NCBI GenBank assembly: GCA_010093705.1
Contig: MU006100.1
Coordinates: 248,001-281,869 of the forward strand
Direction: 5' to 3'
Origin: Patellaria atrata CBS 101060
Taxonomy: Eukaryota
Length of the DNA stretch: 33,869 nucleotides
Position numbers and translations under genes: made by a program. A model generated the notes under the pieces. The model was not told the origin of the DNA, did no database searches, and saw only the letters and a list, made by a program, of their open reading frames with translations. Positions 12,534 through 29,052 of the stretch are shown one piece after another (position 1 is the stretch's first letter; each line of letters opens with the position of its first letter).

Positions 12534-14610
12534 CTACTCCTCCACCGCCCTCTCCTTCCCCTTCCCCTTCCCCTTCCCCTTCCCAATCAACCCCTCCACA
12601 GCCCCAACAGTCCTCACGATCTCCGCCACCCCCAACCCGGCCATCTGCGCCACCTCCTCGTAAAAAAGCCGCGCCGGCCCCTCCAGCTCGTCCGAGGTGC
12701 GGTAGACGCGGTGGTTCTGCCCCGGTCGCAGTATTGAGCCTATAGTCGTAGTGTCGCCGGGTGTACCCGAGGGGATGGGGATGGGGATGGGCTTGACGAT
12801 CTCGAGGCCCCTCTGCACGGTCGCGAGACGGGCTACTTTGGGATGTTCCTCGCTCTCCCTGTCTTTCCCCCCTTCCCTGTCTTTGGCCCCTTCCCTGTCT
12901 TTCCGCCCTTCCCTGTCTTTGCCCCCTTCCCTGTCTTTGCCCCCTTCCCTACCCCCGCCACCGCCCCCGCCGTCCGCGCTGTGGGGGTTTGTAGGAGGAT
13001 CAACGGGAAACATTCCCCACAGCGCGGAGCGGAAATCGCTCTTCCGCTCCCGGGTCCCGAGGGCCTCGGTGCAGAATATCGAGGCGTAGAAGGACATGTA
13101 GGCGTCTAGTTCCTCGGGGGTTAGGGTCAGCACGTCATGTTCTGTGACTTCCATTGCTTGTTTAAAGGGGAGGACGGGGGTTGTTTCCGCGATTTGGGCT
13201 TCGTAGGTGGATTTTGCGGTGGCCCAGGTGGTCCAGTCGATTGACGCGGTGGAGGGGTGGGTGGGGGTTGTTGGGGTGCGGGTGGTGGTGGTGGTATTGG
13301 GAGGGAGGGGAAAGGGGAACAGGAGTCCAGTGGCGATGATCAGCAGGGAGAGGAGTTGGATATCAGGGTGCACGAGCAGCGCATGACCCCTCTTCGCCCT
13401 CGTTTTCGGCGTTGTCGGGTTCGGGTAACTGAAGGTGTAGCCTACACTTTCTGCTAGGGAGAGCACGAGGGGGTATACGTCTATGGGGAGAGCGAGGTCG
13501 ATCAGGTGGCGGAGGAAGAGTTGCGGATACGGCAGGGCGGGGAGAGTCATTTTATACGATTCCCGGTAGAATAGTACAATGGAGTGGATGGAGGCGTAGA
13601 GTCTTGTGGCGCGGAGAACAGAGGACGGCTCGAAGGATTCGATATAGTGGCTCGGAAGCCGCTTTTTCATCTCAGTGGGGAGGGTTCGGCCGGCGCGGTA
13701 GTAGAGGAGTTCGCCGTCTGTGACCCATTTGTAGAGGTCGCCGATGGTGATGGGGAGGTGGAGGAGGAGGGAGCTTAGGTATAGCAGAGCGAGCGTGTCG
13801 AGAAGGGGAGGGAGTGATTCGGGATTCCGGCCTGTGCGTGTACGAGGCGGTTTGGGTGTCTCGGTCTCGGGGTCGCTGGGACCTTCGGATTGGGAGCTGT
13901 ATAAAGGGGTTTGAGAGGCTGTGTCGTCGCCGGCTTCGAGGCGGGCGGAGAGGGGTTTGAGGCGGAGAGCCCAGAGGTCGCGTACGGTGATCTGGATGTC
14001 TGTTAGGGACTGATCTGTACTATACGAATTGTATAGATTGGGGGGGGGAGGGGGAGTGGGGGTGTTTGTATGGTACCTCGAATTCCTTGGGGAAGCGCTT
14101 CTTGTCCACAAGCCATCTAGTTTGCCGCCAGAGTATCAGCTGGTAGCACTGGAGATACAGTTCTAAGGCTGCTGGACCGGTGTATTCTGTATTTCAAAGT
14201 TAGCGATTGTATAGTCGTAGGCATGTACAGTATTTTCAATCCCACTCCGCCATACACACTAGACAGTCACTGATTCTCATGCTCTTTCTGTATTATTCTG
14301 TACAAAGGGTATTGACTTACGTTGCGCCACAGTCTCCCTTTTCACCCTCTCCTTCCTCGTCTTCTTCCCCTGCATACCGTACTGGTCTTCATCTTCCAGA
14401 GTTGCTAGTGTACCCTTGAGTCTATTAGCTCCGAGTTTTGAAAAGTTACTTAACGTTGCATAATTTTGCACCAAAGAGTATATGTTTAGTCCATACCTCT
14501 TGACGATGATCATTGTCACAATACGTATATCCATCATCGGCTGTATAGAATTTTTGTGAAGGACAATTTCCCCAGTCGCATCGTCGGCCAGTACGTCTAC
14601 GGTGCGACAT
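12534..14610 (-). CDS. RRN7: RNA polymerase I core factor subunit Rrn7 (TAF1B) (~591 aa). Exons 14610-14497, 14414-14321, 14186-14077, 13991-12534
   Basis: Reconstructed N-terminus MSHRRRTGRRCDWGNCPSQKFYTADDGYTYCDNDHRQE (C-x4-C-x14-C-x3-H zinc ribbon). It continues LYLQCYQLILWRQTRWLV....FP.EFEITVRDLWAL and DTLALLYLSSLLLHLPITIGDLYKWV, typical of Rrn7 cyclin-fold 1. The introns keep the frame. Confidence 0.9.
12555..12583. repeat. (TTCCCC)n hexamer microsatellite encoding (GK)n at the Rrn7 C-terminus
   Basis: About 5 tandem TTCCCC units, translating as GKGKGKGKGK. A (GGGGAT)3 repeat encoding IPIPIP lies at about 12771-12790. Confidence 0.9.
12856..12950. repeat. 18-bp coding minisatellite, ~5.3 copies (TCCCTGTCTTTNNNCCCT), encoding (REGGKD)n in Rrn7
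   Basis: Units are directly visible: tccctgtctttcccccct / tccctgtctttggcccct / tccctgtctttccgccct / tccctgtctttgccccct / tccctgtctttgccccct / tccct. Confidence 0.95.
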
Positions 14611-15102: not shown

Positions 15103-15844
15103 CTAACCGCGAGGAGCTTCCTTGGCATCGATAGCAGTCTCTTCACCCATAGCAGTAAGGACAATGACGTCTGAACGACTTGTTAGTATACCGGTTCACA
15201 TTTGAGAATATTCCAGACACTTACTGGTGTCCTTGCCATCCTCGGTGAAAAGTTTCTTGATCTTATCGCCAACTTCACCCTCGGGAACTTTAACATCATC
15301 CTTGGTATCACCGGCATCGGTCATAAGAGAGAGGAAACCATCGTCGGTGACGTCAAGCTAAAAGAGATGATATATTAGCGACTGTTGTTGTACAGGACTG
15401 ATGAAAATACGTACAAGCTGATATTCGGTGCGACGGACGTTAGGGACATCCATATTGTGAGTGGAAGGGCAAAGTTCTTCAAGCTTCTTGCCAGTGAAGA
15501 TGTCAATGGCGACGAGATGGACCTTTGCGTGACCGTGCTTGCCAGTCTTGGAGGTGGACATTTCAACGATCTTGCAGGGACGGTTCTTGATGACGACGAA
15601 ACCGTTCTTCCTCAAGGCAGAGCACTGCATGGGAAAGGTGGTAGAGGCACCGGCATCGGCGCTCTCGAAGGTGTGTTGCTCATGCTATTGCGACCATGTT
15701 AGCTGCTGTTTCTGTGATATTCATTATGCCATTGTCGATTGTGGTGCGCGCGTGTCAGGCAGCGATGGGATGAAAGGCGGGGCAGATGGAGGGGTCAAAA
15801 GGTTGTTGGAGAGTGAATCCTACCTGCGCGTCGTTGTCGGCCAT
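15103..15844 (-). CDS. HYP2: Translation elongation/termination factor eIF5A (163 aa). Exons 15844-15824, 15684-15415, 15357-15225, 15170-15103
   Basis: [64 protein letters not shown]...EAPRG*. Contains the invariant hypusination loop [12 protein letters not shown], three canonical introns and strong codon bias. Confidence 0.99.
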
Positions 15845-16303
15845 GATGAAATGAGTGTCAGTTAAATCGAACTATGTGGCAAATAAATGCAACAAGAAGA
15901 ACAGGCTGAAAAGTTGAGGGAGGATGAGTTGAGTGGGCTGTTGTGTGTGAAGAGAAACAAAAAGTTGAGACCTGAGGGTGGAACAAAAGTTGTGCGGCGG
16001 GTCAGAAGGGAAAAAGGCGAAATTCCTCTAGACTCGATTGAGCCTCAGATGCGCCACATCTCCGGCAAGCGGGTTTGCATCTTTTGTCTGTTCCGTGAGA
16101 GGCTCGGACGGTCACTTGTTATTCCGCTCCGACCTCTGCACCTCATGCCAATCCCCTACCTTAGCAGTCGATAACTATGTATACAAACTGTAAGGAGCAA
16201 TCATAAAACAAACACAGAACTTACAGCTACTAACCCCTGAAGAAGCGAATAAGATATTCAAAATCCTCTAAATGTCAAGCTGGGCTATATCGCTGCTAAC
16301 ACC
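15845..16303. promoter_or_regulatory. Divergent promoter region between eIF5A and VPS52
   Basis: 459 bp separate the head-to-head ATGs, with a pyrimidine-rich leader on the eIF5A strand. Confidence 0.55.
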
Positions 16304-18442
16304 ATGTGGCTTGACAGATTCTCCCATCAGTCAACACCTTCAGGGACACCACCTCCCCAAGCCAGACCATATTCTCCTGCTCCGTCACGAAGACCATATC
16401 TCACTCCCGGGACTTTACCCGTTAGACCAGGTTTAAGTCCGAGATCCTCTTCTCTATCCCTCGTATCTGCCAACGTCTCCACAGCAAGTCTTCCCTCCAC
16501 GGTACGAATACCAAATGGATCAGGTTTGAGACAACAAATCGCTAGGACACCACCTAGTGGCATACAAGATCCATCAAAAGTGCTAGAAGATATATTCGGA
16601 AAGCCTCCGAGGAAGGGTTACCAGGATGACAGTAGTGACAAAAAGGTAGAGACGGAGAAGCCTTCAGAGCTAGTAGAGGATATCGACTTCGACGGGTTGA
16701 GCTTGGAAGCATTTGCGGAAAGGCAGGATACGCAATCTCGGGTAACGGCAATTGTACATAATTATAGCGCTCAATCAGTTGAAGAATGTATGTTTTATCC
16801 TGGATAGACCCCATCATGCCTTTGCTCATGCGTGTTATATAGTCGACAAGGAGAATGATAAATTCGAAGATCTTCATCGATCCATCCTAGCGTGTGATGA
16901 TGTCCTAAAATCCGTCGAGACATATTTGACCGGCTTCCAAGCAGACTTGGGCGCAGTGTCTGCTGAAATTGAAACACTCCAATCTCGATCAACTACTCTA
17001 AATACTAAGCTCGAAAACCGTAAGGTCGTTGAAAAGCTCCTTGGCCCAGCAGTTGAAGATATAACCATATCACCCGCAGTGGTTCAAAAGATTTCTGAAG
17101 GTCCGATCGATGCTGCATGGAATAAGGCCCTAGCAGAGTTAGAAAAGAGATCTAAAGCCATCGACGCACGTCTAAAAGAACCAAATGTCATCCAAGCTGT
17201 ACGAGACCTTAAGCCTCTATTAGACGATCTCACCAACAAGGTAAAATACCCCCCATATACTCCCCATACCAGACTAACCACCAAACCTAGGCCATCGAAC
17301 GCATCCGCGACTACCTCGTTGCTCAAATAAAGGCTCTCCGCTCCCCCAACATCAACGCCCAAATCCTTCAACAACAAAATTTCCTCGCCCACAAGGACCT
17401 CTCCGCCTTCCTCTCCCGTCACCACCCCCAACTCGCCGACGAAATCCGTCAAGCCTATATCAACACCATGCGCTGGTACTACCTGCACCACTTCACACGG
17501 TACCGGCAAGCACTCGAGAAGTTAAAGTTGTACCCGGTAGACGCACACTGGGTGCTTGCCGCAGACGAAAGCAGCGTAAAACAGCGCTCATCCGCCAAAA
17601 GCACAACAACAGGACCCTTCGACCCCTTTTCCCTCGGACGACGCATGGACATCCTCCGAAGCAACAAAAACTCCGCATTACCAAGCCACCTCGCCGAAGA
17701 CGACAAAAGCGCCCACTTCCTCGAAACGCCCTTCCACTCCTTCAACCTCGCGCTCCTCCACAACTGCACCTTCGAACACACCTTCCTCTCTACCTTCTTC
17801 AGCGGCACCCACGCCACCACCTCCCGCGCCTTCGACGTCATCTTCGCCCCGACCCTCTCCCTCGCCCACTCACTCACCAAAGCCCTCCTCGACTCCACGT
17901 ACGACGCGCTGGGCCTCCTCATCGCGGTGCGGCTGAACCAACGCGTCGCATTCGCCCTCCAGCGCGCCAAGATCCCCTGCTTAGACGGCTACGTAAACGG
18001 CACGGCGATGCTCCTCTGGCCTCGCTTCCAGCAAGTCATGTCCGCCCACACCGACTCCACTCGCAAGTTCACCGCAGCTCTATCCTCCAGACCGCCAGCC
18101 TCATCCCTGCTCTCGTCCTCGTCCTCCGCCGCCGCCGCCCAGTCCACGGCCCCGCACCCCCTGACTCAACGCTTCTCCAACTTCGCGCATGGCATCCTGG
18201 CCCTTTCCGCCGAAGCTGGCGATGAGGAACCCGTTGGCATGAGTCTTGATCGTCTGAGGACCGAGTTCGAGAACGCGCTGCTGAAATTGAGTAAAGGCAT
18301 CGCTGGGAAAAATAAGCCGGAAAGGTTTCTCGCGAATAATTATAGTCTCGTTGGGACGATTTTGGAGGGTGTGGAGGGGCCGCGGGCGGAGAGGATGAGG
18401 GCGCGGTTTCGGGAGCTGAGGGAGGGAGTCGAGGGCGGTTGA
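16304..18442 (+). CDS. VPS52: GARP complex subunit Vps52/Sac2 (~677 aa). Exons 16304-16787, 16843-17240, 17291-18442
   Basis: DLHRSILACDDVLKSVETYLTGFQADLGAVSAEIETLQSRSTTLNTKLENRK, AIERIRDYLVAQIKALRSPNINAQILQQ, AYINTMRWYY, YDALGLLIAVRLNQ, MLLWPRFQ, PHPLTQRF and FLANNY are Vps52 signature segments. Two frame-preserving introns. Confidence 0.96.
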
Positions 18443-18681
18443 AGGTGTGAGCGTACAGTTGCGGAACTGTGGGCCTTTTTTTTTTCTTTTGTTTTCGGGA
18501 GGCGTGATGTTGAGTTTGGCCGAGGAAAAAAAATAGTTATACTATAATCAATACAATCCCCCTCCCAGCCTTATACCCTCCTCATATACGTATCTGCATA
18601 TCATCTTTCCCTGTACTTCAAACCCCAAAACATTAACAGACAGCCCAATCTCCACCAAAAGCCAAAAAAAAAAATTAAAAA

Positions 18682-18844
18682 CAGTTTTCACGCTCTCCTA
18701 AGAGGGCGTGGTACATCTGCTGCCCCTGCTGGAGCCCGATGGGAGATAATGGGGGCAAGTTGCCCCCTCGGGGAGTCGACCCCCGGGGTTATCGATATTA
18801 CTTAGTGGCGCTACCACTAGGCCACTCCAGGGATTATGGAACTG
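18682..18844. ncRNA. Candidate structured non-coding RNA / tRNA-derived Pol III element (unidentified; strand unresolved)
   Basis: Seven nested helices within about 165 nt. The minus strand carries A-box TGGCCTAGTGG (18824-18814), a B-box-like GGGTCGACTCC (18782-18772) and T5/T11 runs (18681-18664). It matches no snRNA, rRNA or canonical tRNA I recognise. Confidence 0.6.
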
Positions 18845-19257
18845 GGTGCGAATTTGTTAGTTATAAAGTACTGGTGCTAGGTTAGGGTTTGAGAGGGGGG
18901 GGTCGCGTGATGGAGGTGAGGTATTTGGGGTTGTTTGTTTATATGCAGATAGGGGATTGTGGGGGTAGAGGGTACTGGGATTGTTTTTTTTATGGAGTTG
19001 TGAAGGAGGATTTTATATGGGGTAGTAGCTATGCAGTTGCTTGAGAGGTACTTTATTTATTAAATCTATAGTTGGATGTTTTATACTACACTAGCTGTCT
19101 AAGCCCACCGTGAAAAAGTCAACTTCGCTGACACGAGCGTCACCCTAATACATCACATAGACATCCCAAACGCCAATATACCGCCGATCCGTCACTATGA
19201 TAGCTCACACCCCGAACTCCTTCTTACAACGATAATATTACACCCAAACAACCCAAC

Positions 19258-22200
19258 TCACCCCCTCGAACTCCCCAAAATCTTCCCATACGCATCCTCC
19301 ACCTCTTTCGCAACTTCCAACAAACTCACAATAACAATCTGATGCGTGACATTCGGCAACCTATCCCTCTGTAGACCGATCCACTCCAGCGGCGGCGTGG
19401 CCTCACCCATATCCCTTAACTGCGGGGTTTCGATAACCGGGGGCTCGAGCGCCAGATACTCGTACTTCGACTGTGGCAGCTTAACCTCCGCCGTGATCTT
19501 GTTCTTTTCAAGGGATGGTTGTTTAGTCAAGTCTCCGCCGTCCTTGTCCTCGGAGGTGCGGATCTTGACTGCGGATTCGGGGAGAGGCTTTCCGAGACGG
19601 GATGCGAGGGTGTGGGAGTGCGTGCTCCACATTGAACGGATCGTGCTGATGCGGGAGTAGTTCCATCCGACGTCGACTTTGCCCTCGAAGGAGGACTTGA
19701 AGATGTAGTCGATGTGGTTGGTGTCGGGCGCTTGCCAGGTCTGCATTGATGCGATCACTTTCGGGACACGGAGGATAGTGCCGCCCTTTGCGGCTGCAGC
19801 GTTCAAGACGACGTCTTCAACTGTCACGTCACCGAGGGTCTTTGCGGTCTTAGGGTTAGAGATGGAAGCGAGGGCTATACTGAGTTGGCCGAGCGTGAGA
19901 CCGAGGCCGCTGTGAATCTTGTTCTCTTTTAATGCTACAGCAAACCGAGCTTGCGCATCAGATGCATCGAGTAGAAAGACTGCTTTGTCGAAGAAGCTAC
20001 CTGGGAAAATACCCACACGAAGAGATTTAAGAGTAACTACTACGTCTGATTGCAACGAGATTGGTGCTTTCATCTCATTGCTAGCTGGAGAAGGAGCGAT
20101 GATCTGTTGCGATCCCATCCTGGACGGCAAAATAGAAGACTTGCGTCGTAGATATTTCTCAATGTCACGTAGTGACTGGTCATAAGCCGCCTTATTCTCC
20201 TGCACCAGTCTTTCTAAGGCTTGTAGGAGGGCCAGTCCTTGCGAAGCACTTACTGCCGTGCAGAATACTGATACTCTTCCTCCGTCGAGAATAGCAACAA
20301 GCCTATCAGCAGACGTCGAGTCTTCCCTATGGACATTATACATAATAAACCCGAAGGATGTGACATCTGCAATTGCGAAAGCTTGGTAGTCAAACGCCAC
20401 CTTGACACGCAAGTGGTCAAATCCCGCTGAAGCTTGAATGAGAGGCGAGAATTGCTTTTGTTCGTTGTTCGATGGCCACTTGATCGATGTGCGGACTTTC
20501 ACTCCAGACAGGTTCACAAATCCACTCATCCTTCCAGCCGCGTCGATACCGATTTTCTCTACGCCGACACATAGATTGGACTCCCAATCCGAGCTCTTTC
20601 TAGATGAAGCCCACATATTTGTGATCGACCAAGAGGTCTTTCCAATCGCTTGGCCGAGGTCAACATCAACAACTAGATCTGAAATTGAAATAGTTGCGTT
20701 CCATCGGAAAGGAGTAGTTTGCGCAACTTGCTGATATCGTTGTACAAGATATTCTTGCGGCCCAGTGGTTGTTGCTGTGGTGGATTCTTTCGGTGATTGT
20801 CGAGCTTCCGGTGGAATCCAAATCTCTCTGAAGAGAAGAAAGTCCTGTAATTGTCTTGCATTTATTTGCGTACGTACGGGATTTATTCGCAGAATAGCTG
20901 AAACACCGCTCTTGCCGCTAAGATGTTTACTGTTCATCAAGGAAAGAATTATTGAATCAACGTCAAATGAAAATGTCGAGTCTCTCGAATAGACATGCTG
21001 TACAGATGCTTGGAGCTTGTCACAGGTAGCTGATACAGCGAAAAAGTGGCCTTGGTCGTCGGACCTCACGCTATTAGCGGTAATGTATACATCGTTAAAC
21101 TTCATGGTTGCAGCTACTCGGGCCATTGGTTGACAACTCAGACTGAACTCTTGTCTGCAGATTCGAACGCCAATGTTGAGTCTTGTCTTTCCAAGGATTG
21201 TGCTCGGATCTGCTGTGATTATACTATCCTCGTTCATCAAATTTTCTTGGACTCTTGGTTCCAGGAATTCCTTGGGTGAAATACTCTTCTCATCCTTGTT
21301 TTGAACGACTTGTTGGATGCTATTCGAGATATCCATGACCAGCGGAACGAACGTCGGATAGAGCGTATTGACCGATGGGTTGATCCTCAATTCAGCATTC
21401 AGAGTAGAATCCATATCTGTATCCTTATACTCCACCTTAAGCGCTACGCCGGGAGCACGTAACATAGTAGATGAATTTGACCCTTCGTTCACAAATTGTC
21501 CGTATCGACCAGATTGTGTTGTAAGCCCTTCTTTCAACCCTCTTGGTTTCATTCCACTACGTCCTGATCCTCGTTTACCATGTAAGTGAACAACTGCTCC
21601 TGCAAAATTTGCATCAATAAGCAGCGACCCCAATTTCTTCTTACCAAAGGGGTTACGTCTATCTGCACCGGTTGTAGTTGGTGTCTTTGTCCACGATGCA
21701 GTAACGGCCTGGACCTTGGTTGTCGACAAGCATATAGACTTGTATAAGATATTCGCGGGTACAACAAAACGGGACTCTAGTTGCAGATCGAGAGATTTTC
21801 CCCCTGCGTAGATGGCAAAGTTACGGTCTGCAGAAGAAGACCAATATACAACGTTGAAGATGACTTCGGGAAGCAGAGCGGAATTCATGGACCGTTGGCG
21901 TTTATCCTGAGATAATGGTACCATTTGGAGGCGTAAGTCTTCTATCTTCAGGCCTGCCGCATTTCCTCTTTTGCTAGAGAGGTCAATCTTCTTGAATGAC
22001 AATACTAAGTCTTCGACATCCATCCCGGATGAACCTGGGACAGAATTACCCACAATCCAACATATTTGTATCCCGGTCAGTTCTACTTGGAATGCTGATC
22101 TAAAAAGAGCACTAGATACGCTGCTATCGTCATCATTTACGCCGTCCTCCTTTGGAAGTAGAGATGTTTTCCGTTTGGGCGCCTGCAGTCTACGCAAATA

Positions 22201-25200
22201 TTTCTTCTCCCGCGATAGATCTAGATCCTTTAATTTGTCTTGGAGGTGATTCATTACATCCACAATGGTAGAAGCAGTATCGGCAAACAGATTAACCTCT
22301 AGACTGGAACTCTTGATCTGGTAATTTCGCCTAGAAGGCATCGAGTTATCATCCGGCGTGGTTCCCCGGAATGAGGCACCAAAGCGAACGTTACCACAGG
22401 GCTTAGAGCCATGACCATCTAGCAGATCAAGCTGAACACAGAGTTCTCGTAGATAAGCTTTGAACTGGGGATCCGGGAGTGCAGTCAATTCTTCGGATAC
22501 GTTGGTGATGCTAACGTGAACGCAATGAAGGGAAGCTGAAAGGTTGGCAGTGGATGAACCTTGCAGGCTTGTAGGAGCAGTCGCGATTATGCTTGTCCCT
22601 TCAAGAATGAACTGAACAGTATAAGTTGGTTGTGGTGATGATTCCCTCCGAGGGTGATGTCTACCAGGCAATGAAGACAAAATCTCTTGTGCATGTGATT
22701 TGAGTATCATTCCATCTTCTTTCATTGCCTCGAGGGTATTTGCAATTTCTGGTCGATTAAATGCAGTCAACAATCCATGGATCGCAGAAGCTTCGAATAC
22801 CACCCTTCGCATCGTGGTTACCGTCTTTATGTCTAGCGAACCATCCACCAATTTCACTAACTGAAGCTGTCCATTGACTGGAGGTATTTCCCAAGAAGAT
22901 ATGTTCCCAGACTTCTGGAAAGTCTTTCCAAGTATCTGATGATTTTGACGACCGAGATCATAATCTAGTTTCAATGAGAAATCACAATCTAGGGCAGGTC
23001 GCGCGGATATCCGTCCGATTCCACCGCTAATTGAGTACTTCAAGGACTGAAAGAGCGGAATATCTATGCGATATGATTCCATAAGTAGAGCTACAGTTAT
23101 ATTAGGCATTCCTCCTTTTGTTTCTTTTGTAGATCCCTCTGGAGCGCAATCATGAGCAGCTGTAGGACTCCCCAATCTACTTGCAATATATGTGAGTTCA
23201 TCGTTAACCACTCGGTCCACAACTTCGATTAATGCCGGTAATTCATCTTCGAACTTCATAGCGATTTCCTTGCTAGCACCTGCAATTTTCAGGTCGACCG
23301 GTTTGGTGCTATGGTTTCCGTGCTTCTCATGGGATATGAATAGATTGGGGGCAACCCACAATGCAGAATAGACACGGCGTGCCCGGGAACTGAAATCTGT
23401 TGAAGCAGCATCGGCATGTAACAGAGCGCTGATAGAGAGACTTTCAGGTGCTGTTGCTCCTAATGCTCCAACAACAGATAATTTCAATCCCTGACTCTTC
23501 CAGGCGCATTTAAGATTTATAGTGTCAAGTGTTATATTACCCGAATCGGTAGTAACAACAAACTGGACGTTATGTGCTTCCCTTGTGTCCAGTTCTTCAT
23601 GAATTCGATTTACGCTATGTTCGACGTCCTCTTTTGAAGTTAATCCCTGAGCCTGGAACAACTTGATAAGATCTTCTATAAGCTGGGCAATCTCCCAATT
23701 CAGATGAAGGAGTATGGAGCCTATATGGACTTGAACTGTGGTTGATTTTATTTGTACACCACTTTCAAGAAGCATTAATCCTAAAGGCGATGGCGGAGGG
23801 ACTGAGGCAAAATGGACAACTAGCGTTCTGAGGCGAATCTCACTTTGATTTGGACCTGGATCGACCAGTAAACCGATTGAGGATGACCGTACTTCTATTG
23901 TCCAAGACGTTGGATTCTTTGTATGAAGAGGTTCAACGCCAAAACCAGCTATCGAGCCAAATAATGTTCGCATCGCAAAGCTGTTTTTTACGTGTGAAAG
24001 ATCCCACGCGCGCCAGCTGTCCCAACTTTCAATGATCTGGGTCTCTCCATCTGGTGGACAGCAGGTAAATCTGTCAGCACAAGCGTCCCTTAGTTCTTGC
24101 TTGTCTTCGTCGGAGAGGCATTGGTAAATATAGCGGAATCGAGCAATGATTTTCCAGGAATCATGATTCCGCAGATGGTCTTTACTTGCTCGTAAAGCAT
24201 AGGACGCGCGTGTTAAGAATACCGGATCAGGAACATCTGCGCCAGACATGGTGAGTCGATATGCAAGATATTGCATGCGTCGTCGGTGCTCTCGGAGTAC
24301 GGATACAATTCTGGTCTCAAATTCACCGGCTAAGAGCGTTGTTCGATGTATCAACGGAGCTAAATATTCGATTCTTGTACTGGTTGTAGCAACTTCAAAA
24401 TCTTTGAAGGAAAGCTTTAACAATCCGGCATCTGCGGAAACAAGCCAGCATAGTACATCCACTATGTCCAGACGGACTAAACACTCTGGATTCCCCACCT
24501 TGTCTGCCTTCCCTTGAACAATTGCATGAAAAGCTCCTAGAGTAGCATGCAGTGTAGTCGTGTCACGCCAATCTGCGCCCTGCGGAGGTGTCTTGGATCG
24601 GAGGGCGACCCTAAGTCGTTTAATGATAAAATCGTATTGATCTTGTTCCATCCGTCCTCTAGATTCCTCCAAGTTTGACTGAAATGAATTTAGGAAACGG
24701 ATGCTAGCATGCGGTATTCGCAAGTTAAGTTCAACGAATTTTCCTTTTCCGGACTTAACCTTCCGAAGACCTAGAATTTCAGATATAACCCCAATTTGAA
24801 AGGAGTCCAACAGTGCCTCTGGGTCTTTGGCTTCTAGTGAATCTAAGAGATTTGCCACTGTAAAGACTGCTTCGGGCTTGCACAAAATCTGAATACCCGG
24901 TTCTACACTTACAATAAACGTTGTGTGAACTAGATGCTCATCAAAGGATTTGCTAGATACATCGTTGAAGTGGGGAGTAGAGTCATCGGAATGATGAGAT
25001 CGGGTAGAATTATCAGGCAGAGGAGGGACCTCTGCCATGTCAGGCTCCACGTTGTTCAGTGTAAAGTACGGAGTATTAAGACAACTAGAGAAAGCCATCG
25101 TTGAATGGGGTGCACGAAGGCCTCCGGGTTCCTTTGCTTGGGAAAGTCTGTCCTGCTCACTCCTTTGCACACTCATCCTCGATTCTCGACTTTGAGATCT

Positions 25201-28200
25201 AGTATTACCGAAATCGTTCTTTGGTGGCTGATCTAAGCTACTAGGTCTTGATAGTGAATGTGTGTTAGACGGAATAGTTCCATCAAGGTAACCTGTTGTT
25301 ATTGTAGTAATTGAATGCCTAATACTTCCAGTTTCACCACCAGCATGAACAGGTTCAGGAACCATAGGAAAAGGCATTGCTGGGATTTCAATCTCAGTGC
25401 GAGCTGTTGATCGCGAGTATGATTTGCTATTAGCGTCAACTGATAGGAAGAACGGTGTTCGATGTGTCCGCTCATCATGCTCTAGTACGTGATTTTGTTG
25501 CTTTCGCCTTTCTTCGCTGAAGTCATACTTTCTTTTTAGCATGTTCAGGCGTATAGCCGTGGAGAAATACGCATACGTCTCCACAACATGACGTGGTCCG
25601 CCTTGTAGTCGATGTCTTGACGCTAACTTTGCATCCACACAGCCTACATTTATTTGAGGGATAAGAACCTGGAGACGTTGGGAGAAAGTACTGCCAGCCA
25701 TATCATTGAACTCGACATTGATAGGCTCGGTCCTCACGAGTAATGCCTCGTCTCCAAGTAGAAGGGCCACATTCATAGGAGCTGCCTGTAGACGTAGAAA
25801 CGTAATGTCGTGGATAACTGCAGCCTTTACGATATCAAGTCCGTTTTCGTCATCGTCTAAGGTAAATACAAAGGCACGAATGCCTGCACCTAGGTTCTCA
25901 AGGAACTCAGTAGTAAGTTCCCCAGATATTTCGCCCACGTCAAAGTCCCAATTGCAGACGTATGTAGGCTCAGTTGGAGGTAATCCAAAAAGTCGATGGC
26001 CAAATATGTGAACGGACTGGAGGAAGAGTTGCGTCTCACCGGAGCTTTCAACCGGCGTCTCTGTGCTTGTGCAATATTTTCCAAGCGAAGCATGTAGTGG
26101 GCTGAAGTCAACCATAAGATCCATATAATAGTTAGTGAACCGTAAATCTGCTGAAGCAAATGCCGCATCTAACCTCACATGGTCATCGCTTGTGTATAGG
26201 TTTGAAGGCAAGAGGACACTTGCATTATCAACACTGACGCAGAGGATAACATCAAGATCATTAGACCTTTTAGAAGACTTTTCTAACTTGTCTTGAGTTT
26301 CCTGATAGTCACCTTGCTCTCGTAACCATTGAAACTCCTCCAAAGTTTTGAAATGCATGTCGTCTCCAAAATAATTTTCTCTCATCTTCATAAATTGCTC
26401 GATTAGAAACCCGAACAAGGTGAGACGTACGTTTGTTCCATGTATGTTAAGATTTAAAACGTCAGTAAAAGATGGAGAAGTCTCTGTGAAATAGCTGTGG
26501 CTCCCAGTTAGTTTCAATGAATCGAGATCGGCGACATTATTTGCTTTTATAAAGGTGTGAATCGTGTTACGGGGTGGCGTTGAAAGATCTAGTCCGAACT
26601 TATAACCCTTGACATCAAACGTTATCTCGTTCTGCAGAGGCCTGAACTGATCGAGAGGAATGGTTAGGTCCGCCTCGAGCTCTTCGCCATACATAATGAG
26701 AAAGTTATTGTCATCTATGTCCGACGGGTCGTTGACTATGTTCAATCCGTTCGTATTCAAATACATTCGGAAATCATCGAACTTGACATTCAGCAAATAT
26801 TTGAACGGAGTAAAAGTGAAGTAATCTGTAGGAGGTCCTGCACCCCAGTCCGAGATTAAATCCGTCAGTAGGAATAAGTGATCACGAAGGATAAATAGAT
26901 GGAGTCCATTAGATAGGATATTGAATTTCCATGTCCGCAGTTGATTCCACCCAAGAGGAAGTGGCAGATCACAGTCAAGTGACAAGCGACCTGCTCGCCA
27001 TAACAGTCCGTGATTCACACTAGACGATATTTCGGTCCCTGGAACATCAACATCTAACTTATTATGATAGCCATCTTTTGCAGCGACCATATCCATTCTG
27101 TAATTCACTGTTGTATCTGAGGCTATCTTGATATCTAACCAAGCAAATGGTCGGACATTAGGCCCGGGTAGACCTGCATCACGCTTCTTGAATCGGATTG
27201 ACTTTATGCGAGCCTTAGCGTGCGGCTTGGCCTTGTCTCCAGATTTCCCTCCGTCAGGACTATCACCGGTGAACGCCCCTGCTTTTCCTTTGAAACGCCA
27301 GTCCTTTGAAGGTTCCCGCACGGGGATACGAAGAATTGTTTCTTCTTCGATGCTAAGAAACATTCTGAACACTGAAAGGACTCGGGTGTCTCCACTGTGT
27401 AGAAGTTCAGCGGGAATTACATCAGTATAAGATCCAGGGAAGAAGAAGTTTTGGAAGTTCACACGGTGTCTGTCCGCCCAAGGTCCATAAGTAATAGTGC
27501 CGCCATGAATATGGAGATCGAGTCCATAGTCAGGTGGAGTTGTACCATTGATATCGGTATTATCTAAAGGTAGCCTAGATTGATCAAGGTCGTGGGGAAC
27601 AAAACCAGGTATATCCCAATAGAAGGTCATGCTTAGGCGCGGACAATCAGCTATAGTTGACGAATTTGCGTACTCTATGCCGCTCCATTCGTCGTGTTCG
27701 TTATGCTGAGTATCATCAAGATATCGTGTTAAGCCCTTCCATCGTTCCTCTCCAGGAATGGGTGGTGGGATAAGACTTGGTCCTTTACCAGATGTATTTT
27801 TGGTTGCTATAGAGTCAAATGACCGACGAAAAAGGGGTGACAAATTCTGTAAGGCAAGCAACATTCTGTGAGATTTGTGTGGTTTCGATGATTCTTCAGT
27901 AACATCTGGAGGAATATCGCTATTCACCTCTTTTTTGAGATTAGCTGCAGTTGCTAGTTGAAGGCCCTTAAAATCGGGATTCGGACGCATTTGGATAACT
28001 GGATGCGTAAAGTCAAAGCGGAATATCTGTTTATAGATATCAAGGGGTCCAGATTCACCGGCGTCGAACTCGCCCCAAGCGCTATCGAATTTCGCTGTGA
28101 TTATAGCTTTCGTATTTTCATTGCCTACAACTATTGCGCCTTTATTGCAATGGATGTGGATGGGAAAGAGACCTAAGATAGCAGGTATCTCAGGTTTGAG

Positions 28201-29052
28201 ATCCGAATTGAGAGCTGCTGCTCCAATTGCTCCATCAGCACCATAGGTTGTCTCGGTAGCGCGCTCTACGGGCTTGATATGAGTTGATTCAGGTGAAATA
28301 TGACCGTGGGCGGAACCTTGACTTTTCTGTCCCTCCGAATTACTATGTTGCGCCTGGGTATTTGGAGATGTCTCCTTCCGCTTCTTTGCTTTTGCGATAT
28401 TTTCAATAATGGAGTCATATATCGGACTCCGATTATAGAGAAATACCTCAACACCTGATGCCTTGATAGATATTCGGCATGGTAAATCTGGTAATGACTC
28501 TTTTCCCCCTCTTTCCTCTTTTCCTAGGCTGCGGCTCCTACTGCGCATTTCGCTATGGCTTGGTGAAGCTAGGTTGCATAGGCTCTCCTTTCTTGATGTT
28601 GTCCCGTTAGAACAGAATTCTGGTTTTTTAACCTTTCTAAGCCAGTATCTCCATGTTATGTAGCCTCCATGTACTAGTATCGTCTGGTTTTGCCCATGGT
28701 AACGTATGTCCCTGAAAAAAACTCTCCCAGCGAGGAGTGATATTTGCAAACTCTGTATATCCACATAGACACGATATTGATGCCAAGTGTAGGCCCTAAT
28801 TGCGTACGACAGAACGGTTGCGAATAGTCGATTGAAGTAGTAGAGGAAGAAGATTGTCCTATATAACCAGTAAGTATTAACAGTTTGCTAGGGAAGGGAA
28901 GTGAGCCTTACAATATGCCACAGACTAGCAGCTCAACTAAGTAAACCCTAAGGCATATTGTTAACAGTGTTCAATCTCTATTAGATAGTGGCATACCAAT
29001 TGAAGGACCCGTCGCCCCTCAAGGGCTCCGCAGTTAGACCTCCGGACGACAT
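19258..29052 (-). CDS. CSF1: Csf1, bridge-like lipid transfer protein (BLTP1/Tweek/KIAA1109 family), ~3230 aa. Exons 29052-28997, 28947-28912, 28858-19258
   Basis: A 3168-aa ORF plus two short 5' exons gives MSSGGLTAEPLRGDGSFNWVYLVELLVCGILTIFFLYYFNRLFATVLSYAIRAYTW (N-terminal TM anchor) then SLQISLLAGRVFF. YGPWADRHR, YFGDDMHFKTLEE and the C-terminal PQLRDMGEATPPLEWIGL..DRLP..TH are Csf1/BLTP1 hallmarks. Confidence 0.96.

Follow-up and report, generated by a model that had tools for sequence, protein, structure and literature searches.

In type-2 RNA polymerase III (Pol III) promoters, transcription usually starts 10–20 nt upstream of the A box. The yeast RPR1 and SNR52 genes carry their A and B boxes in a tRNA-like leader, and dicistronic tRNA–snoRNA genes and herpesviral tRNA–miRNA units are also known. 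Known TFIIIC-only sites need only a B box, and tRNA-type units lying between convergent Pol II genes affect termination and chromatin boundaries. tRNA-derived Pol III elements are rarely annotated; in addition to the SINEs of Aspergillus fumigatus, Mg-SINE and Foxy are reportedly tRNA-related SINEs of ascomycetes, and old SINE copies can lose their target-site duplications. The tRNA-related SINEs of A. fumigatus, for example AfuSINE2, are 140–493 bp long, occur in low copy number and carry A and B boxes (PMC5063351).

The window analysed here, a stretch of 33,869 nt of Patellaria atrata CBS 101060, is fungal nuclear DNA and holds on its minus strand an element that can be compared with each of these systems. 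It shares with the SINEs of the AfuSINE2 type a tRNA-related head with A and B boxes, a body unrelated to tRNA, a size in the range of 140–493 bp and a low copy number (PMC5063351), whereas it has no target-site duplication, ends in a T-run and in no A/T-rich or simple-repeat tail, is not known to have a partner LINE and shows repetition for its last 49 nt only. With tRNA genes and pseudogenes it has in common the A box, the B box, the geometry of the D-arm and T-arm, an upstream TATA-like word and an oligo-T terminator, but it differs from them in having no anticodon stem, in the displacement of the acceptor 3′ strand by 34 nt and in its negative results with tRNA finders. Like RPR1 and SNR52, the tRNA–snoRNA genes and the tRNA–miRNA units, it has its promoter boxes in a 5′ domain, followed by a structured RNA unrelated to that domain and by one terminator; unlike them, its downstream part matches no RNase P, snoRNA or other Rfam family. 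Finally, as in TFIIIC-only (ETC-type) sites and tRNA-gene boundary elements, a B-box site lies between Pol II genes, although the element, unlike the ETC-type sites, has the full anatomy of a transcription unit.

The element sits mid-way in a spacer of 816 nt that is flanked by convergent VPS52-like and CSF1-like ORFs. The last exon of the VPS52/Sac2 gene is the ORF ending near 18442 (+), which is 100% identical to a Patellaria atrata CBS 101060 protein; the next best match of this protein, in the nearest available relative, has only 58% identity. On the other side, the ORF at 19258–28887 (−), with 3209 codons and no intron, matches Csf1_N and Csf1_C and corresponds to a bridge-like lipid transfer protein of the Csf1/BLTP1 type. 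Further away, the window contains an exon of an eIF5A gene at 15358–15684 (−; IF5A-like_N, E = 1.7e-39) and, at 12838–12968, an 18-nt unit repeated six to seven times in tandem within the ORF at 12534–14135 (−), where the copies encode repeats of the GGKDRE type in a protein with Rrn7/TAF1B cyclin domains.

An initial annotation had read a tRNA-type Pol III unit on the minus strand of the spacer. The parts it named were a TATA-like word, an exact A box, a T-arm mimic of 5 bp and 7 nt enclosing a one-mismatch B box, an acceptor-like stem and an oligo-T stretch, and we find all of them on that strand. Read 5′ to 3′ along it, the TATA-like word TTTATAA (18867–18861) lies about 25–31 nt upstream of the putative start, which should fall in a zone at 18834–18845 if, as is usual in type-2 promoters, Pol III starts 10–20 nt upstream of the A box. 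The 5′ acceptor-like strand CCTGGAG (18831–18825) directly abuts the A box, as it would in a tRNA, and the A box itself, TGGCCTAGTGG (18824–18814), is an exact match to TRGCNNAGYGG. Folding gives a D-arm-like hairpin (18826–18804) with the stem AGTGGC/GCCACT. The place of the anticodon arm is taken by an A+T-rich stretch (18803–18786) which has no stem and is unpaired in the folds; counted by hand in tRNA register, one of five stem positions pairs, and the anticodon arm is thus missing, as had been noted. The T-arm mimic (18785–18769) has a 5-bp stem, CGGGG/CCCCG, in which all five pairs form, and a 7-nt loop, GTCGACT. It encloses the B-box-like word GGGTCGACTCC (18782–18772), one mismatch away from GGTTCGANTCC, with a G at tRNA position 54. 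In the initiator tRNA genes of eukaryotes, which are transcribed all the same, this position is an A, and the departure from consensus is probably not a strong objection.

Beyond the T-arm, the seven bases on its 3′ side do not complement CCTGGAG. The extra hairpins that had been described after the T-arm are present in the folds, among them the G+C-rich GGGGGCA-ACT-TGCCCCC (18767–18751). The acceptor-like 3′ strand CTCCAG (18734–18729) comes 34 nt after the T-arm, compared with directly after it in a tRNA. It is followed by a 49-nt module (18726–18678), which contains the hairpin CACGCCCTC-TTAG-GAGAGCGTG at 18710–18689 and, as described below, is repeated elsewhere. The candidate Pol III terminator is a split oligo-T at 18681–18664, made of T5 (18681–18677), AA and T11 (18674–18664). 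The T5 lies 90 nt downstream of the B box, and no T4 occurs between the start zone and the T5.

The spacing of these parts agrees with that of a tRNA gene. From the start of the A box to the start of the B box we measure 42 nt, within the 30–60 nt expected of a type-2 Pol III unit; the spacing is tRNA-like as had been claimed, and the distance of about 44 nt given for it has to be corrected. By manual count, the interval from the end of the D-arm to the T-stem is 21 nt, the length seen in class I tRNAs whose variable loop has 4 nt. With the A box taken to begin at tRNA position 8, this interval and the two arms on either side of it are placed precisely as in a class I tRNA, and a manual reading finds positions of the A14/G18/G19/A21/U33 type in register on the minus strand. 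The head may resemble a tRNA of the Glu/Gly type. Within it, TGGTAGCGCC (18816–18807) equals the primer-binding word of Ty1/copia elements. An LTR remnant with its primer-binding site was considered and rejected: the word is preceded by CCTAG and by no LTR end, it is explained by the D-arm, and the window has no LTR-like repeat.

The element is not, on the other hand, a tRNA gene. ARAGORN with default settings finds no tRNA gene in the whole window, and Rfam finds nothing at gathering score in the same stretch. When 821 bases and 101 bases were searched with E ≤ 10 allowed, the Rfam tRNA model still gave no match; these two narrow searches and a third one, of the downstream part, return only matches with E > 0.2, far below the gathering scores. 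Together with the lost anticodon stem and the displaced acceptor strand, these results exclude a tRNA gene and bear out the view of the initial annotation that this is not a canonical tRNA. When the ARAGORN threshold is lowered to 90% of its default, a single cloverleaf appears in the whole window, at 18761–18842 (−). Its register is different, and the inner part of the D-arm-like hairpin (18804–18826) is read as an anticodon arm; at the same threshold, 581 kb of control DNA give six matches.

We looked for copies of the element in the contigs of two DNA runs (X1 and X2) from one sample, which is probably the source of the window itself. In each run, one contig spans positions 16000–21000 without a difference, at a depth of 317.6 (X1) and 459.7 (X2). 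Segment 18678–18726, and nothing else of the element, recurs with four differences over its 49 nt in two other contigs of each run: 3432 nt (depth 318.6) and 9254 nt (depth 312.6) in X1, and 3832 nt (depth 467) and 2038 nt (depth 424.5) in X2. Moreover, short contigs match the core of the module (18695/6–18725) with two differences, one in X1 (33 nt, depth 983) and three in X2 (33 nt, depth 1200; 31 nt, depth 900; 31 nt, depth 380), at about 2–3 times the depth of the spanning contig. Since two other contigs have single-copy depth and the short contigs have 2–3 times that of the spanning contig, the module is multi-copy. What is new here, judging from these contigs, is that the 3′ 49 nt of the element are repeated elsewhere in the genome; they occur at no fewer than two further loci, and the number is probably nearer five or higher. 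The copies are 92% identical and their adjoining sequences diverge. A mitochondrial insert can be rejected, as the other copies of the module have nuclear single-copy depth.

The borders of the module are of interest on both sides. In another copy, whose loose end was read reverse-complemented, the module is followed by T4-GCCA-T9, and a split T-run is thus common to both copies. On the upstream side, the other copies depart from this one within a few bases of the module; a word of about 9 nt, GGRGCCCGA (+), seems to resume the likeness beyond a small indel, and the boundary of the module is therefore not sharp. In the 30 nt preceding the module, the consensus of the other copies (agreement 0.73) has a minus-strand T7, which would stop Pol III before it reached the module on that strand. 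As for the tRNA-like head, no second copy is found at ≥90% identity in the contigs of the two runs; nothing else in 16000–21000 matches a second contig at this level, and the head is therefore unique at ≥90%. Within the window, no second copy rises above the null obtained from shuffled chunks. In the genome copy count that had been proposed for this locus, run here on the contigs of the two runs, the multi-copy 3′ 49 nt lean towards a repeat of the SINE-like kind, whereas the head shows no second copy at ≥90%.

Taken together, we tentatively favour the reading, which we hold at a little short of an even chance, that this is a Pol III-type repeat on the minus strand, derived from a tRNA and SINE-like; it is the membership of the unit in a low-copy dispersed repeat family that would make it SINE-like. 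The head (about 18831–18769) would have kept the internal promoter of a tRNA gene, with its A box, its B box and tRNA-exact D-arm and T-arm geometry, and would have lost the anticodon stem and the acceptor strand expected after the T-arm; G+C-rich hairpins, the 49-nt module common to several other loci and the split T-run would complete the unit. TFIIIC would bind the A and B boxes, TFIIIB would be placed over TTTATAA, some 30 nt upstream of the start, and Pol III would make an RNA of about 160–173 nt ending in the T5 or the T11. The transcripts could then have given rise to further copies by retroposition, or the copies could have arisen by duplication at the DNA level. The descent from a tRNA gene, the transcription and the mode of spread are what we infer from the arrangement of the sequence. 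The element is, in short, most likely a plausible and ordinary repeat-derived feature of a known general kind.

Several observations argue for this SINE-like reading: the exact A box with a B box of one mismatch 42 nt further on in a perfect T-arm, a combination that is rare in shuffled and control DNA (see below); the well placed TATA-like word and the body free of T4, with T5/T11 next; the only cloverleaf of the window at the 90% ARAGORN threshold; the recurrence of the 3′ 49 nt in other contigs, with a split T-run after another copy; and the occurrence of low-copy tRNA-related SINEs in another ascomycete (PMC5063351). Other observations weigh against it. Besides the single head and the T7 upstream of the other copies, the search for a target-site duplication called for in the initial annotation came out negative: the two flanks have no common word longer than 5 nt, a length equalled in 768 of 1000 shuffles. 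The tail reads T5-AA-T11 on the sense strand, with none of the A-rich or simple-repeat sequence usual for SINEs. The Rfam tRNA model is silent, the lowered ARAGORN threshold also yields its six control matches, the B box is off consensus at position 54, and folding picks no strand. Indeed, both strands of the 182-nt unit give unusually stable folds (z = −2.68 and −2.60), matched for either strand by 2 of 200 shuffles, and since the folding energy is equally unusual on both, structure does not choose between them. Nothing on the element appears in titles and abstract beginnings of the Patellaria atrata literature, nor in those of the literature on SINEs, transposable elements and tRNA in Dothideomycetes, among the matches listed.

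The finding that only the 3′ module is seen elsewhere means that head and tail may be unrelated neighbours. The head would then be the lone relic of a dead tRNA gene, lying beside an unrelated repeat of which the module and the T-run are a fragment or an end, and the unit as a whole would not be transcribed; the neighbouring mobile element may even be of a kind that inserts near Pol III genes. We regard this as rather unlikely, although it accounts well for a head that is unique at ≥90% next to a repeated tail, for the divergence of the other copies, with their T7, a few bases upstream of the module, and for the missing anticodon stem and acceptor 3′ strand together with the negative default ARAGORN and Rfam searches. 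It accounts less well for the continuity of the unit. No T-run separates the head from the module, and a transcript started in the head would therefore enter the module and stop exactly at the T-run of the module. In addition, only 2 nt separate CTCCAG from the module, and it is CTCCAG that closes the head in the unconstrained fold. A comparison with 61 fungal metagenome loci carrying VPS52 orthologues adds an argument that is weak, the loci being distant and not syntenic: none of the 61 holds a tRNA gene, next to the VPS52 orthologue or elsewhere. The element itself has no match in these 61 related loci either (best blastn E = 1.2).

We may wonder at this stage whether the promoter-like words are there by chance, in a hairpin-rich spacer where the 49 nt derive from a MITE or another repeat in either orientation, with neither history nor function. 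An exact A box and a B box with at most one mismatch, 30–69 nt apart, occur once in the window, at this site; when the window was shuffled 300 times with its dinucleotides preserved, a single shuffle contained a pair of this kind (mean 0.0033), and none is found in the 581,561 bases of the 61 other fungal loci. With both boxes relaxed to at most one mismatch, the same 581,561 bases give two matches, neither of which has a TATA-like word and one of which has no T5 at all. In real fungal DNA, the background frequency is 0.024 for a stretch of 140 nt free of T4 with T≥5 in the 60 nt that follow, and 0.055 for a TATA-like word at the right upstream distance, both factors having been picked after the site had been seen. 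The joint presence of the boxes, the T-arm, the spacing, the in-register positions, the TATA-like word, the T4-free body and the T-run is far below one per window. The whole arrangement is thus very unlikely to be due to chance, although large scans still yield some chance A/B pairs, and the anatomy of a type-2 Pol III unit claimed for the minus strand is real and improbable by chance in shuffles, control loci and background frequencies alike. What can be said for the chance origin is that very many windows have been scanned, so that an event of 0.003 per window will appear, that the extra factors were picked afterwards, that structure is equal on the two strands and that the Rfam tRNA model is silent. 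A MITE is a poor source for the repeated part, as there is no terminal inverted repeat longer than 5 bp and no TA or TTAA duplication, and we consider the whole explanation unlikely. For the element in general, a MITE or another DNA transposon was rejected on similar grounds, the terminal inverted repeat being only CAGTT/AACTG (5 bp) and the flanks showing no TA, TTAA or other duplication.

Less probable still, and in our view decidedly unlikely, is a functional Pol III noncoding RNA gene, possibly one of a small family, from whose transcript tRNA 3′-end processing would free a conserved hairpin RNA of about 50 nt. The folds are consistent with such a design: without constraint, 18831–18726 forms a three-hairpin domain closed by CUGGAGU/GCUCCAG, the 3′ module (18726–18678) folds on its own, apart from this domain, and the repeated match begins 2 nt after CTCCAG. 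The module also remains 92% identical between copies whose neighbourhoods diverge, and another copy keeps the split T-run. The T7 upstream of the module in the other copies and the blurred module boundary speak against a gene of this kind, as do the lack of any C/D or H/ACA box seen in the sequence and the lack of an Rfam match. That the locus represents a fungal family of Pol III transcripts, in which the tRNA-like domain serves as both promoter and processing handle for the hairpin RNA of about 50 nt, is very unlikely; we know of no cellular tRNA-linked small-RNA unit of this kind in filamentous fungi.

The position of the element mid-way between convergent genes and its near-consensus B box could also be taken to indicate a site that is bound by TFIIIC but hardly transcribed by Pol III, if at all, and that separates the VPS52-like gene from the CSF1-like gene as a boundary or as a block to transcription. 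We hold this to be highly improbable, since the A box, the TATA-like word and the terminator are also present. Moreover, the gene pair is not kept in relatives: the C-terminus of CSF1, which would mark the convergent VPS52–CSF1 pair, is found in none of the 61 related loci, and there is thus no sign of a conserved boundary.

The reading of the plus strand as coding, which the initial annotation had set against the Pol III unit, found no support and can be dismissed as extremely improbable, since the ORF at 18679–18885, an open frame of 68 codons from stop to stop of which the first ATG leaves 48, matches no Pfam family and has no real homologue; in its favour stand the open frame itself and a wobble pattern reported in the initial annotation. 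Against 1.84 billion representative proteins, among which the ORF itself is not included, it has two matches, both of them internally repetitive proteins aligned in 10 and 7 short stretches, and neither an orthologue. The top match, P0121, encoded on one contig of 55.8 kb, has 1151 residues in repeats of roughly 80 residues, and the A-box/D-arm region, when translated in antisense, aligns with the motif ...SPLGHSVEYG of these repeats. P0121 may itself be, judging from this alignment, the translation of a tandem array of tRNA-like DNA in another organism.

If the SINE-like element is transcribed, a lineage of fungi that has been little studied (Patellaria atrata, a Dothideomycete) would gain a Pol III element of tRNA origin, and two convergent Pol II genes would have a potential site for Pol III/TFIIIC between them. 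Only one feature might hint at more than an ordinary decayed repeat, namely the conserved 3′ hairpin, which occurs with a T-run of its own at several loci.

Two minor observations concern the element and its near surroundings. Beside the two acceptor-like strands there is a weak internal likeness between 18830–18846 and 18734–18755 (+), with GGGATTATGG at 18830–18839 and GATGGGAGATAATGGGGG at 18738–18755; this likeness may be the trace of an old internal duplication. Directly after the stop of the VPS52-like gene, at 18455–18485 (+), a 6-bp hairpin, ACAGTT GCGG AACTGT, is followed by GGGCC and T10. It mirrors the AACTG and T-run with which the element ends on the minus strand some 180 nt away, the two forming an inverted pair that is 71% complementary, and this likeness may be due to chance or may represent a second, decayed end.
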